The position numbers and the translations under genes were made by a program. From an uncultured Actinomycetes bacterium (GTDB taxonomy: Bacteria; Actinomycetota; Thermoleophilia; Gaiellales; Gaiellaceae): a stretch of 64,000 bases of DNA. The stretch covers positions 310,708-374,707 of the forward strand of contig CAWGLI010000002.1 of the NCBI GenBank assembly GCA_963823385.1, read 5' to 3'. Below the pieces are notes generated by a model. That model did no database searches. It saw only the letters and a program-made list of their open reading frames with translations, and was not told where the DNA came from. Shown here piece by piece: positions 7,952 through 16,305 of the stretch (position 1 is the stretch's first letter; each line of letters opens with the position of its first letter).

Positions 7952-8061
7952 CACGCTGTGTATCGGCGCCGAGATATCAATCGGATGACGCCGAGTGCTC
8001 CAAACAGCTGAGGATCCGAAGCTCACTCGGACGGATGGACCCAGGTGATAGCGGCGTGTGT

Positions 8062-8089
8062 TGCGCCCGCGTTCGTGAATGTCACCCGA
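8062..8089 (+). repeat. 28-bp repeat R2 (degenerate)
   Basis: TGCGCCCGCGTTCGTGAATGTCACCCGA. Confidence 0.75.
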
Positions 8090-8116
8090 AGCTCCGACAG
8101 CCGATCACACGGGGAC

Positions 8117-8551
8117 TTAGTCCTCGATCTGCGCCAACCCGTTTCGCTGCAACTCATCGAGTGCGGTCCGCATGGCCTCGAGCTTCTCGGGCGAATGACC
8201 GACCCAATCGACGAGCTCGCCAACAACCCGCAGCGGTTCGCGGCTCCGGAAGGACTGCGTTGGATTTCCCGGGAACTTCTTGTCGGTCACGTTCGGGTCA
8301 TCCTCGAACTCCCCGGTTGGCTCGACGATGTAGATGCGCCCGCGGCCCTCACCGCCGGCGAGCTCGGCGCCCCAGACCGCAGCGTCGAGAGTGGCGCTGA
8401 AGTACACGTAGTTCATCACGCGGCCGGTCTCGAAGTTCGATTCGCGCCCGGGGACAAGCAGATCGCCCACCACGAGCTCTGCCTTCGTACCGTGCAGGTA
8501 CACGCCGGCCTCGTACACCTCGAACGGCACCGGCTCACGCAAGGCGCCCAC
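8117..8551 (-). CDS. arr: NAD(+)-rifampin ADP-ribosyltransferase
   Basis: YLHGTKA, YVYFSA, WGAELA, VEPTGEFEDDPNVTDKKFPGNPTQSFRS are Arr signatures. Confidence 0.92.
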   Translation of the reverse strand: MGALREPVPFEVYEAGVYLHGTKAELVVGDLLVPGRESNFETGRVMNYVYFSATLDAAVWGAELAGGEGRGRIYIVEPTGEFEDDPNVTDKKFPGNPTQSFRSREPLRVVGELVDWVGHSPEKLEAMRTALDELQRNGLAQIED

Positions 8552-8595
8552 GCGACGATGCCAGCGCCACGGCGGTGACGTGCGCGCTCCGTCGT

Positions 8596-9042
8596 TTAGG
8601 CTTCGAAATACGCCTCGTCGAAGCGAGGCAAGCCGTCGTCAGGGAGGTCGTCCCATGGTGCCCGCGAGGCGACGAACACGTGGAATTCCGGCCGAATACC
8701 GGGGTCGCCGTCGAGTGCGCCGAGTCGGACGCCAACCTCGTCCCCGTCGGGCCAATCCCCCCCGAACAGGCTCGACCCGCACACCGAGCAGAACGCCTTC
8801 ACCCGCCCGTCGTTCGGCCGGAAAACGCGGATCAAATCCTCGCCTGCGAGAAGCCGGAAGCTCTCCCGCGGAACCCTCCCCTGTGTCCCGCCGAACGCGC
8901 CAGAGTGCTTCCGGCATCGCGAACAGTGGCAGTGATTGGCCCAGAGGAAAGGCGCGGTCACCTCGAAGCGCACACCACCACAGAGGCACGAGCCCAGCAG
9001 CGGTTTCGCAGAACTAGGCTGCACGGCCACGTCAGGTGACAT
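8596..9042 (-). CDS. GFA/CENP-V family Zn-binding protein
   Basis: GSCLCG, CHCSRCRK and FCSVCGS motifs. Confidence 0.9.
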   Translation of the reverse strand: MSPDVAVQPSSAKPLLGSCLCGGVRFEVTAPFLWANHCHCSRCRKHSGAFGGTQGRVPRESFRLLAGEDLIRVFRPNDGRVKAFCSVCGSSLFGGDWPDGDEVGVRLGALDGDPGIRPEFHVFVASRAPWDDLPDDGLPRFDEAYFEA

Positions 9043-9165
9043 TCTCCCACTCCGCGAAACCATCGCCCAATGTCACGAAACGCCACATTACCGCCTCGCA
9101 TGGCGAGACCCCAACAGGCCCCGGGGCGCTTCCGCGGGCGCCCCTCAAGGGATCGCCACATCGCC

Positions 9166-9194
9166 TACGCGAGCGTGAGGGGAATGCCCCTTGA
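9166..9194 (+). repeat. Repeat R3 (29 bp)
   Basis: TACGCGAGCGTGAGGGGAATGCCCCTTGA, ending 2 nt from the stop of the minus-strand gene at 9196. Confidence 0.8.
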
Positions 9195-9195
9195 G

Positions 9196-10134
9196 CTAGG
9201 AGATGTCCCGTGCGATGTCGCGCACGATCTCTGCGGCGCTCGCGCGGCGACGTACCGAGTCCACCGATGTCCCCGCGTACAACGCCATGGAATCGATATC
9301 CCCTTCTGTCTCGGTCGTCGGCTGCACGTCGCTGTAGCGCACAACCGGACAGCCTCCGCGCACGGCGACCACGTCACCCTCGCCCGGTCGTGATCCGGAC
9401 GGCGGTCTACCGGCTGATTCCCACCGGGCGAGCGTGTCGTTTTGGAGGACGCGATGAGGCGCGTGCGGCCAGCCGATGTCGAAGACCGACGTCAGAACGG
9501 TGTCCGCGGCGGTCGCGCCGGCGAGACGCTCGAAATAGTCGGGATGCACATCGGCTTCGGTGGCTGCGAGAAACACCGTCCCGCACGCCACACCGTCGGC
9601 ACCCGCGTCGATCATCGCCCGCGCAGCTGCGGCGTCGTCTATCCCCCCGGCGGCGATGACGGGAACGTCGAGGACTGGGCGTACCTCACCTACGAAGTCG
9701 CTCAGCGGCATTGTGGCCTCTACGTGGCCACCAGCCTCGACTCCCTGCGCGATGACGATGTCCGCTCCCGCGTCGGCCGCGTCGCTGGCTGCTGCAACGT
9801 CGCCGACCTGCACCAAAACGACGACGCCTGCGTCGCGAGCGCGCGCTATCAACTCACGGTCGACACCCCACGAAAAGGACACGAACCCCCCGCCTTCATC
9901 GAGCACCACATCGAGTCGCTCATCCTGGTCGAAGTGCAACACGAGGTTGACGCAGAACTGCCCACCGACGGACGAGCGAATGATCCTGAGCTGCTGGCGA
10001 AGCGTCTGTGGATTCGTCCACGACGCCGCCAGGGTGCCGAGCGCACCGACGCTGCTGACCGCCGTCACGAGCTCAGGCGTGGTCGCGGGCCCGATCGGCG
10101 CTTGCATCACCGGCAGCTCCCACAGAAGAGGCAC
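9196..10134 (-). CDS. Nitronate monooxygenase family flavoprotein
   Basis: QAPIG, AQGVEAGGH, PVIAAGGI and GVACGT motifs. Start could be the later ATG (MQAP). Confidence 0.88.
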   Translation of the reverse strand: MPLLWELPVMQAPIGPATTPELVTAVSSVGALGTLAASWTNPQTLRQQLRIIRSSVGGQFCVNLVLHFDQDERLDVVLDEGGGFVSFSWGVDRELIARARDAGVVVLVQVGDVAAASDAADAGADIVIAQGVEAGGHVEATMPLSDFVGEVRPVLDVPVIAAGGIDDAAAARAMIDAGADGVACGTVFLAATEADVHPDYFERLAGATAADTVLTSVFDIGWPHAPHRVLQNDTLARWESAGRPPSGSRPGEGDVVAVRGGCPVVRYSDVQPTTETEGDIDSMALYAGTSVDSVRRRASAAEIVRDIARDIS

Positions 10135-14540: not shown

Positions 14541-15308
14541 ATGCGTGAGGGTTCGGCGCAGGTACTGATCCGGCAGGTGGCGTTGCTCGGGACGGCGAGC
14601 GTCGTAGCCGGCGTTGTGGTGGGAGGGGTGGGCGGTCGTCTTGTGATGCGCGTGTCGGCGATGGCTGCGGGCTCTGAGGCGGCGGGGCTCGTGACCGAGA
14701 ACGGGAACACGGTCGGTGAGATCACAGTCGGCGGTACAGTGGTGCTGATCGTGTTCGGCGGCGGGCTGGGCGGCCTGCTCGCGAGCATCGTGATCGTCGC
14801 TGCCGAGCCGTGGCTGAAATGGATGGGGCCACTGCGAGGACTCGGGTTCGGGCTGGTGACACTGGCCGCGTACTTCTCGTTCGACACGCTCGACTTCCGC
14901 CTCATCGACCCACCTGCGCTCAACGTGGCGATGTTCGTTGGCCTCTTCGTCGCCTACGGGTTGGCCGTGTCTGGTGCGTACTGGCTTCTCGATCGGAAAC
15001 TACCCCCGGCCGGAGAGGACATTCAGATCGGATACGCGGTGCTTGCCTCCTTCGGCTTGATGGCGCTGTTGATGGCCGGCCTCTTCTTCACGACCCCGAG
15101 CTTCTGCGGCTGCGAGCCTGCGCATCTGATCGGGCTCACGATCCTCGTGATGGCGGTATCGACCGCCATCACCCTCGTTGCTTCGGCGGCTGCCACGTTG
15201 CCACGATGGCTGGCACGAACCGCCACCCTCACCGGATACGGCGCGCTGGCTGTCCTCCTGGTTGCTGGACTCAGTCGCTCCCTCGATCAGATCCGGGGGG
15301 TCGTCTAA
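14541..15308 (+). CDS. Multi-pass membrane protein of unknown function
   Basis: Long hydrophobic ORF containing GGVGGRLVMR; start uncertain. Confidence 0.7.
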   Translation: MREGSAQVLIRQVALLGTASVVAGVVVGGVGGRLVMRVSAMAAGSEAAGLVTENGNTVGEITVGGTVVLIVFGGGLGGLLASIVIVAAEPWLKWMGPLRGLGFGLVTLAAYFSFDTLDFRLIDPPALNVAMFVGLFVAYGLAVSGAYWLLDRKLPPAGEDIQIGYAVLASFGLMALLMAGLFFTTPSFCGCEPAHLIGLTILVMAVSTAITLVASAAATLPRWLARTATLTGYGALAVLLVAGLSRSLDQIRGVV

Positions 15309-15382
15309 CCACGCGGCACAGAGACCGACCGCAACTCCCCCCGCAGCCGAAGACTCGCCAGGCACGTCCCACGAGTCTGGCC

Positions 15383-15410
15383 TGCCCGAGCGTGCCGGAA
15401 TGTCCCCTGA
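15383..15410 (+). repeat. 28-bp repeat R10
   Basis: TGCCCGAGCGTGCCGGAATGTCCCCTGA. Confidence 0.85.
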
Positions 15411-15424
15411 GCCGCAGGGCGGCA

Positions 15425-15727
15425 TCACCGCATGAAGAGCGCGACGCCGAGAGCGAGGAAGATGGCACCCACCGCTCGACGTTGACCGCGGCTGAGTGGC
15501 TGCCCGCGAACGCTGTCAACCGACCTGGCTGACATGAGGGAGCGCTTGGAGCCGAAAGAGAGCGCGGACGCGACGGAGCCGGCAGAGCCGATCGAGAGGA
15601 CAGACCCGGCCGAGCCGATGGAGCCGATCGAACAGAACGAGCCCACCGAACCGATCGAGAGGATCGAGCCATCGCTAGCAACCGACAAGATCGAGTCGTT
15701 GGAGTTCAGCGACCAGAGCGCGTTCAT
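15425..15727 (-). CDS. Small Ser/Gly-repeat (SIGS) protein with C-terminal membrane anchor
   Basis: MNALWSLNSNDSILSVASDGSILSIGSVGSFCSIGSIGS..., followed by a hydrophobic tail. Confidence 0.7.
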   Translation of the reverse strand: MNALWSLNSNDSILSVASDGSILSIGSVGSFCSIGSIGSAGSVLSIGSAGSVASALSFGSKRSLMSARSVDSVRGQPLSRGQRRAVGAIFLALGVALFMR

Positions 15728-15848
15728 ACGACCTACCCTTCCGTCCTCCTGAGCGCGTATACGCGATCGTGGGCTCGCGACGTGAGCCACGCGGCGATGT
15801 TGTTGACAACCCGCGGTATCGTCCCGGTCTTGCTGTCGCTGCTCCGAT

Positions 15849-16169
15849 TCAGGAGGAGCGGGACACCCGGTCGACCTCGCGCCGAATCTCCTCTTCGCTG
15901 AACCCGGCTCGATAGGTCTCACCTGCGTGGAACGCCAGGCCGATGCCCCAGCCGACGAACGGAAAGATTGGCCAAGGGAACCACGGGCCGCCAGTCGCAA
16001 ACAGGATTCCCCAGATGAGCCAGAGGAGCGAGTTCACGAGCACGTACACGATGAGATGAGTGCGAAACTTGCGCCTCTTCTGGAGCTGGCTGATCGCCAG
16101 ATCTCGAAGATTGCCGTCGCTCCCGAAAGGCTCAACCGGAGTGGGCGCCTGGACTGCGGTGTTCGTCAC
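15849..16169 (-). CDS. 2TM domain-containing membrane protein
   Basis: FRTHLIVYVLVN...WFPWPIFPFVGWGIGLAFH...EEEIRRE; AGGAAGG RBS. Confidence 0.8.
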   Translation of the reverse strand: MTNTAVQAPTPVEPFGSDGNLRDLAISQLQKRRKFRTHLIVYVLVNSLLWLIWGILFATGGPWFPWPIFPFVGWGIGLAFHAGETYRAGFSEEEIRREVDRVSRSS

Positions 16170-16294
16170 CTGTACACCCCCTTCCTAGGTCACCACCAAG
16201 TTTGGCCTGTCCGAGGCGATCGGCAATCGTGGTATGCGCTGATCTTGGTACCGGAAACACACGCTCCGTCAGCCCTGCGGAACATGGCGCTCCG

Positions 16295-16305
16295 TGCGCG
16301 AGCGT
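16295..16305 (+). repeat. Left part of repeat R11 (interrupted by IS110)
   Basis: TGCGCGAGCGT; joins 17554-17570 to give a complete 28-mer. Confidence 0.85.

Follow-up and report, generated by a model that had tools for sequence, protein, structure and literature searches.

Co-oriented recombination sites of about 49 bp delimit a probable array of mobile gene cassettes in an uncultured Gaiellaceae bacterium

Introduction

Integrons are, to our knowledge, the only system for stockpiling and shuffling single-gene cassettes that is well understood. Their attC sites are 57-141 bp long, carry the boxes R'' (RYYYAAC) and R' (GTTRRRY) and exchange strands between the G and the TT of a GTT; they reportedly also serve as homing targets for insertion sequences (IS), namely, the IS1111-attC elements that Tetu and Holmes are said to have described in 2008. 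Here, we describe a locus that is laid out much like an integron and yet differs from one in the kind of site it uses: a series of co-oriented copies of a 28-nt repeat, found between 6.7 and 18.0 kb of a 64,000-nt stretch of DNA (the whole of which is hereafter called “the window”; GC content of 69%) from an uncultured member of the Gaiellaceae (assembly GCA_963823385.1, contig CAWGLI010000002.1, positions 310,708 to 374,707 of the forward strand). These repeats had been taken, in an original prediction made by a model from the letters of the window, for attC-like sites recognized as folded single strands. No complete integron was found in Actinobacteria by IntegronFinder (PMC4889954).

Gene modules bounded by short sites are also seen in Acinetobacter plasmids, where 28-bp pdif sites resembling dif (an 11-6-11 layout) alternate in orientation, and the enzyme acts in trans instead of being encoded by the module. 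Repetitive extragenic palindromic (REP) elements and bacterial interspersed mosaic elements (BIME) are palindromic, dispersed genome-wide and often arranged as inverted pairs, and in phage systems the short/long hybrid attachment site is the inert product attL. As to serine integrases, the ZD motif of their sites lies 5 bp nearer to the centre in attB than in attP (Rutherford et al. 2013, PMC3783163), while the RD motif is at the same place in both, and the crossover falls at the central dinucleotide (PMC3783163).

Results

Eleven copies of the 28-mer TGCGCCAGYGTKCGGGAATGTCNCYYGA, all on the + strand, lie within 6.7-18.0 kb of the window (R1 at 6731-6758, R2 at 8062-8089, R3 at 9166-9194, R4 at 10159-10186, R5 at 11778-11805, R6 at 12311-12338, R7 at 13210-13237, R8 at 13307-13334, R9 at 14346-14373, R10 at 15383-15410 and R11, which is split between 16295-16305 and 17552-17570), and there are none in the window's other 46 kb. 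The intervals between the sites hold one or two genes on either strand, or no gene at all, and the cargo consists of diverse accessory enzymes from mutually unrelated families (LanC-like, Arr, GFA, nitronate monooxygenase, PpoB2, two DUF1326, cupin, APH-like and 2TM); outside the array, the window carries housekeeping genes, as judged by eye from their translations. The GC content of the array is 0.66, against 0.70 in its flanks; GC skew was uninformative for locating a terminus or dif. In our estimation, a chromosomal array probably occupies 6.7-18.0 kb, with about eleven mobile gene cassettes set apart by co-oriented duplex recombination sites of about 49 bp.

The site is by no means confined to the window. 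Searching one genome per species with a degenerate 22-mer of the repeat gave more than 117 loci, almost all of which belong to metagenome-assembled genomes of Gaiellales, Gaiellaceae, Thermoleophilia or Actinomycetota, and at least 120 further soil and sediment contigs came from a metagenome scan. In all, 238 sequences carry 687 site copies, and the site is nearly invariant across this order-level clade. Adjacent sites lie on the same strand in 443 pairs and on opposite strands in 5, with a median spacing of 746 nt. Both orientations occur in one locus (L051, with sites reading + + + + - - - - - + + + and two of them head to head 124 nt apart), which suggests inversion of a cassette block. Plasmids gave no significant match to the site; viral contigs gave 40 matches to a 16-mer of it, 38 of which lack the extended 21-nt site, and of the two that carry it (L248 and L270) the latter was dismissed as a chance match inside a tail-fibre-sized open reading frame (ORF). 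Adjacency of the arrays to tRNA genes is not general, and a k-mer enrichment screen for a second conserved motif at a variable distance found none.

When all loci were compared with one another, blocks of 0.3-1.5 kb, up to 98-99% identical, were seen to start and stop at the repeats, with unrelated DNA beyond them. There are 73 cassette pairs at least 85% identical between loci, and 43 independent junctions (21 left and 22 right) at which the flank beyond the site is unrelated. Cassettes of the window itself also have counterparts: the APH cassette is 87.7% identical over 979 nt to one that sits between different neighbours in L154/L190, the 2TM cassette has a counterpart of 87% identity in L115 (next to a site that is intact there and split by an IS in the window), and the LanC-like cassette has one of 71% identity between two sites in L011. 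Cassettes are thus mobile and arrays polar, and co-oriented sites with the same cassettes in different contexts are what an integron-like cassette array consists of.

The junctions also show where strands are exchanged. Counting from the T of the invariant TG with which the 28-mer opens, identity at the left junctions is 10-76% (mostly 19-43%) at positions -19 to 0 and 95% from position 1, and at the right junctions it is 64-86% up to position 2 and at background from position 3. Therefore, the 28-mer from position 3 on travels with the right-hand cassette (positions 12 and 14 included) and the 20 nt before TG travel with the left-hand one. Exchange takes place within the invariant T1G2, with a resolution of 2-3 bp (between positions 0 and 3), i.e., at a central dinucleotide, as is expected of a serine recombinase.

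Such confinement bears on the notion that no dedicated enzyme is involved at all, the repeats being REP-like or terminator-like elements between which cassettes are shuffled by homologous recombination. Stretches of identity of 28-49 bp can, after all, support rare RecA-dependent exchange, and many copies directly follow stop codons. The breakpoints, however, are confined to TG and polar, the whole 28-mer going with the right-hand cassette and none of it with the left-hand one, and near invariance across an order-level clade also speaks against the notion. A REP or BIME identity was rejected, as the window copies are clustered in one co-oriented array rather than dispersed and have no stable fold, and so was that of an intrinsic terminator, since there is neither a fold nor a T run (U tract) and the orientation of genes relative to the co-oriented sites is mixed; on account of this mixed orientation, a promoter role was rejected as well. 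No Rfam family matches either (a single hit at E 0.79 is a chance one). We consider such an enzyme-free origin highly improbable; that the repeat belongs to an integron-like cassette array as its recombination site, and is not a terminator, had already been the leaning of the original prediction, and this part of it holds.

Conservation extends from -20 to +28, so the site is larger than the 28-mer, as had been surmised (50-70 bp were proposed; about 49 bp are conserved), and one of its halves is indeed strongly and the other weakly conserved. The right half, the strong one, is made of an inner motif SGCSAGYGT (positions 3-11), a 9-nt linker KCGGGAATG and an outer motif TCNCYYGA (21-28). The 20 nt before TG, with the consensus CCGGGCGA-GAGG-ACGCTCGCC, mirror it: an outer (T/C)CGGGCGA at -20 to -13, a 4-nt linker and an inner ACGCTCGCC at -8 to 0, so that the two halves differ chiefly in that the right outer motif lies 5 bp further out. 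The mirrored outer key bases C..G.GA are found 13 nt before TG in 74 cases, 12 nt in 5 and 15 nt in 3, with 2 further cases at the symmetric 18-nt register. Within the inner arms (-10 to 0 against 3 to 13), 5.09 of 11 positions are complementary in register, compared with 1.7-3.7 when shifted, whereas a copy's own arms (5.09) do no better than swapped ones (5.01 ± 0.05). Symmetry of the consensus without copy-by-copy upkeep therefore points to protein half-sites on duplex DNA, not to base pairing, and an imperfect dyad whose proximal motif is fixed and whose distal motif occupies either of two registers 5 bp apart is the make-up of a serine-integrase attachment site. In the inner motif, every third position is variable (3, 6, 9 and 12, i.e., S, S, Y and K, mirrored at 0, -3, -6 and -9), with the dinucleotides GC, AG and GT invariant between them in all copies; this resembles codon wobble on either strand, yet no ORF uses the pattern.

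A second version of the site marks the right end of arrays. This 23-nt variant, TG-SGCSAGCGT-GCTC-TCGCCYGA, keeps the inner and outer motifs and has a linker of 4 instead of 9 nt, its right half thus being in the short register and devoid of the GGGAATG block; in the window, it is TGCGCCAGCGCTGTCTCGCCTGA at 17983-18005 (+), after the last cassette and just before a diol dehydratase gene. It was first noticed at the right end of six arrays; a looser short-type pattern has 47 matches and is enriched, and in at least 19 arrays of the genome set a short-type site lies to the right of the last 28-mer on the same strand, a rule read from match lists held against site maps and not from a computed statistic. 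The “insertions” after GT in L121 and L229, tried as IS ends, were rejected, being short-type terminal sites followed by ordinary genes. Strains sharing 99.5-99.9% identity (L121/L141/L192 and L154/L190) have different cassettes from a point inside a shared site onwards, recent events that agree with the TG crossover: L154 and L190, and likewise L121 and L141, begin to diverge within it, and L121 and L192 (99.75% identical) after TGC, where L121 has a terminal short site at the exact place of the long-type site and further cassettes of L192. The polymorphism between the latter two was made by exchange between a long-type and a terminal short-type site.

The hairpins of the original prediction were examined on 10 window copies and on 318-568 copies from related genomes (the 318 unique ones being drawn from 118 sequences, i.e., 117 loci and the window). 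All the repeat copies and complementary words that had suggested them are present, among them CAGGTGA (8042-8048) and TCACCCG (8083-8089) at R2, CTCAAGGG (9143-9150) and CCCTTGAG at R3, GCTGGC and GCCAGC at R4 and, on either side of the IS, GGAACAT (16279-16285) and ATGTTCC (17561-17567) at R11. The claim that each upstream arm tracks its copy's own variant, though, fails, and such words occur at chance level. For the window copies, the best complements of the 3' arm within the 70 nt upstream add up to 57, compared with 57.1 ± 2.1 after shuffling and 56.9 after swapping, and over the 318 copies an arm matches its own upstream at 5.25 of 8 positions and swapped arms at 5.24 ± 0.03. Whether the core is joined to its own flank or to a shuffled or swapped one makes no difference to duplex and minimum free energies, either upstream or downstream.

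Folding the 80-nt sites as DNA, on both strands, revealed no excess stability over dinucleotide shuffles either (z from -1.2 to +1.6 in the window; means of -0.5 for the + and -0.2 for the - strand over 150 copies). A mutual-information scan of all columns found no Watson-Crick covariation among the 318 copies, its top value of 0.17 bit belonging to neighbouring columns, and RNAalifold on 58 copies gave two tiny local stems with neither a compensatory pair nor a long-range stem. Even a best-case two-helix structure built from the dyad motifs has 53.3% of its cells paired (55% in helix 2), against 53.9 ± 0.6 in shuffles and 33-42% in slid registers, and a covariation score of 0.095 against 0.094.

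What remains of the complementary words is a family-wide dyad to which four pairs belong, CAGGTGA/TCACCCG of R2 and CGGGCGA/TCACCCG of R5 as outer motifs and GCTGGC/GCCAGC of R4 and CGCTC/GAGCG of R11 as inner ones; all the others are chance. The same split runs through the two classes of arm gap that had been distinguished, as the 24-nt one is due to chance and that of 9-11 nt survives as the mirrored outer motif of a duplex-DNA half-site. An attC-like site folded as a single strand for an integron-type tyrosine integrase, its structure kept by copy-specific compensatory changes, is thus refuted on the very grounds named for it in advance, pairing being no better than in shuffled sequence and no consistent structure emerging across copies; although co-oriented sites between diverse small cassettes do look like an integron or a cluster of attC sites lacking an integron integrase (CALIN), and complementary words do catch the eye in several copies, we give this reading next to no weight. 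The site is also too short for attC at about 49 bp, exchanges at TG and lacks RYYYAAC/GTTRRRY on either strand of its consensus, no IntI-like gene is found in the window or in the array-bearing loci screened, and the clade is one in which integrons have not been found. The lesson is that visible complementary words in DNA of 69% GC are no evidence of folding.

The copy R11 is interrupted by a 1.25-kb IS (16306-17551, - strand; transposase at 16311-17327), which leaves positions 1-11 (TGCGCGAGCGT) at 16295-16305 and positions 10-28 (GT GTAGGAATGTTCCCTGA) at 17552-17570. The transposase has the domains DEDD_Tnp_IS110 and Transposase_20 (Pfam E 4e-20 and 1.4e-21, respectively), and an exact lookup of the protein returned only a 1-kb contig. 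Insertion occurred after G10T11 with duplication of GT, the junctions reading ...GCGT followed by TGCTCC and GACATTGA followed by GT; the latter, right junction is identical in L082, L099 and L102, and the opposite one in L099, L101 and L166. Domains, site- and orientation-specific insertion and a duplicated 2-nt core all place the element in the IS110 family. Its non-coding left end of about 220 nt, upstream of the transposase, is conserved in five genomes and contains two words, CAUUCC and GCCAG(C/U)GUU, that correspond to the sequences on either side of the insertion point, as the target loop of a bridge RNA would; the C/U variant partly follows position 9 of the target. Upstream of R5, the string GGAACATGTCAAGCGTGCGGGAGC (11735-11760) includes ATGTCAAG, a word identical to the IS end at 16313, which may have been left by an earlier IS end or be due to chance.

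Might an IS110-type DEDD recombinase, its bridge RNA programmed for the site on both loops, be the cassette recombinase itself? IS110-family genes are the only recombinases seen in the array DNA (11 copies in 9 loci), such enzymes exchange strands at a 2-nt core, and both target flanks are matched by the conserved left end. The IS, however, inserts at G10T11, whereas cassettes cross over at T1G2, and this difference in dinucleotide makes it a parasite of the site rather than the recombinase of the cassettes; its copies, moreover, have distinct ends of their own and behave as ordinary insertions, they are present in only 9 of the 238 sequences, and the dyad and two-register motifs indicate protein half-sites, not RNA guides. 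This makes such a role quite improbable. Like IS1111-attC and REP-targeting IS110 elements, the window IS and its relatives in 4-5 other genomes insert at a fixed dinucleotide and in a fixed orientation of a repeated recombination site and have a conserved non-coding end with target-matching words; the likeness, however, concerns the parasite of the array only, and the target is a new sequence.

As for the individual cassettes, the first (6731-8061) opens with R1, whose 28-mer TGCCCGAGCGTGCGGGAATGTCCCTTGA comprises the TG crossover and the long-type right half and is preceded by a weak left half in the 20 nt before it, and carries the LanC-like gene (6800-7951, +). R2 (TGCGCCCGCGTTCGTGAATGTCACCCGA) is followed by a two-gene cassette on the - strand (8117-9063) with an Arr-type rifampin ADP-ribosyltransferase (8117-8551; E 8e-50) and a GFA-family protein (8596-9063), and R3 (TACGCGAGCGTGAGGGGAATGCCCCTTGA, with a 1-nt insertion and G2>A) by a nitronate monooxygenase family gene (9196-10134, -). 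Between R4 and R5 lie, again on the - strand (10245-11724), a PpoB2 copper-chaperone-like gene and a DUF1326 gene (11080-11724); the left half of R5, CGGGCGA-GAC-TACGCCCCGG, displays the short-register outer motif. A cupin gene (11821-12225, -) precedes R6, and the second DUF1326 gene (12430-13077, -) precedes R7. The 97-nt interval from R7 to R8 (within 13210-13334) is gene-free, i.e., an “empty” cassette.

After R8 comes the APH-like phosphotransferase gene (13363-14334, -; E 5e-7), the true start of which is probably internal, since the mechanically called ORF reads on through R9. R9 is followed by a gene for a membrane protein (by eye, without a Pfam match; 14454-15308, +), R10 by the 2TM domain gene (15849-16169, -) and the split R11 by the last cassette gene, for a small membrane protein (by eye; 17668-17916, +). 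Two of the window's cassettes, those with Arr and the APH-like gene, thus code for resistance-type enzymes.

Beyond the terminal site, the array adjoins a gene for a diol/glycerol dehydratase with fused large and medium subunits (18037-20292; 751 aa). Further on, ARAGORN called a 93-nt tRNA-Val at 21373-21465, inside an overlap of short-chain dehydrogenase/reductase (SDR) and FAA-hydrolase ORFs, which is probably a false positive. L115 (5040-6363, reverse complement, compared with 5823-5872 and 15769-16306 of the window) has the amine oxidase flank at 85% identity; its array occupies the same locus and runs the other way, with a short-type site abutting the amine oxidase gene. Of the array words sampled (7000-16300), 9-30% are present in estuary, sediment and wetland metagenomes and several estuary metatranscriptomes, which places the organism in these habitats and shows that part of the array is transcribed.

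Discussion

The likeness of the arrays to integrons goes rather far: long rows of short co-oriented sites delimit one- or two-gene cassettes of unrelated accessory function, some of them empty; one and the same cassette turns up in different arrays and genomes; the crossover is at the edge of the site, almost all of which moves with a single cassette; a distinct acceptor-like site stands at one end; and IS110-family elements home to the site in the manner of IS1111-attC. The differences, on the other hand, lie in the machinery. Instead of an attC hairpin with R and L boxes and extrahelical bases, there is a duplex of about 49 bp with dyad motifs; screening of the window and array loci brought up no IntI; only about 58% of the cassette genes are co-oriented with the site, and a common Pc promoter is therefore unlikely; and the hosts are Actinomycetota, where integrons have not been found (PMC4889954).

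With the attachment sites of large serine integrases, the sites of the arrays share a total size of 44-54 bp, exchange at a non-palindromic central dinucleotide, an inner motif equally placed in every half-site and an 8-bp distal motif whose two registers are exactly 5 bp apart (PMC3783163). Because of the 2-bp crossover, the common inner motif and these two registers, the enzyme would most likely be a large serine recombinase. The boldest reading, to which we would assign a probability of roughly 45%, is that of a second, independently evolved integron-type gene-capture platform in Actinomycetota (Gaiellales/Thermoleophilia), with duplex sites of the serine-integrase kind handled by a serine recombinase or another non-IntI enzyme under synapsis rules not yet described.

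A number of points weigh against duplex sites served by a large serine recombinase. Motif screens of the window and about 1.3 Mb of array DNA turned up no gene for a serine or tyrosine recombinase (the serine-integrase screen being a crude one that would miss phiC31- or Bxb1-like N-termini), and neither an integrase nor a directionality factor was found for the array, so the enzyme class has to be read from the sites; the motif HxLRH...GH...Y is absent from the window and 237 loci, save for one truncated tRNA-adjacent tyrosine integrase, and no large ORF family recurs next to the arrays, guilt-by-association clustering of ORFs having yielded only IS110. The internal sites, which bound many small cassettes and not one prophage, are uniformly of one hybrid type, short on the left and long on the right; as this makes them like the inert attL, an attP x attB rule alone cannot explain excision and reinsertion. 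The outer motif, too, is 3-4 bp more distant from the centre than in the solved A118-family structure. The rule of the terminal site comes from match lists, as said above, and no cassette circle or excision joint was detected in public estuary and sediment reads, whose depth is too low and whose contigs are thin and fragmented. Lastly, a crossover between positions 0 and 3 would also fit a tyrosine recombinase with a short overlap centred there.

This last point raises the alternative that a tyrosine recombinase acts on the sites as duplex cores, be it an Xer-like enzyme, as for Acinetobacter pdif, or a dedicated one, with a short overlap around TG. At 28 bp, the conserved block is as long as dif, tyrosine recombinase cores typically show a dyad around a central asymmetric element, and Xer enzymes work in trans and need no gene nearby; as with pdif, gene modules are bounded by 28-bp sites, and the enzyme is not encoded by the module. 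Yet the arms abut a 2-bp centre and not a spacer of 6-8 bp, and the inheritance of positions 12 and 14 with the right-hand cassette shows that exchange does not occur in a 12-17 spacer, as an 11-6-11 site would have it, but at the 2-bp centre where the 28-mer begins. Nor do the co-oriented sites alternate as pdif sites do, and Xer sites have nothing that corresponds to the two-register outer motif. Compared with the predicted actinobacterial (Frankia) dif, CACGCCGATAATGCACATTATGTCAAGT (PMC3025954), the site shows no convincing similarity, and identity with dif was rejected, the resemblance being a superficial GACAT...GGCG at the wrong spacing. We hold a tyrosine recombinase to be unlikely, albeit the least unlikely of the alternatives considered here.

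If duplex, serine-integrase-like sites are taken as a guide, a dedicated site-specific recombinase encoded elsewhere in the genome would act on the sites, binding them as duplex DNA in the form of a dimer of the large serine type. A cassette comprises the 28-mer of one site from its third position on, the left half of the site that follows and, between the two, its cargo, which may be absent or amount to one or two genes on either strand. Such cassettes would be excised as circles between two sites, each circle retaining one hybrid short/long site, and be inserted at a site again, probably at the terminal short/short one, which may be the chromosomal acceptor and the counterpart of attI or attB, in a reaction that would regenerate both types of site.

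Conclusions

Literature searches by topic and by sequence words retrieved no description of this site or system. The arrays are a cassette platform with a site different from that of integrons and probably with an enzyme of a different class, and many of them, integron-like in layout, are harboured by an abundant and uncultured order of soil and sediment actinobacteria. If confirmed, this would mean that cassette platforms evolved more than once. It would, furthermore, make a large stock of accessory genes accessible to targeted recovery (enzymes of the Arr and APH types in the window and many cupins, glyoxalases, hydrolases, acetyltransferases and regulators) and provide a compact duplex-DNA recombination site with a built-in polarity, which might possibly serve as a tool.

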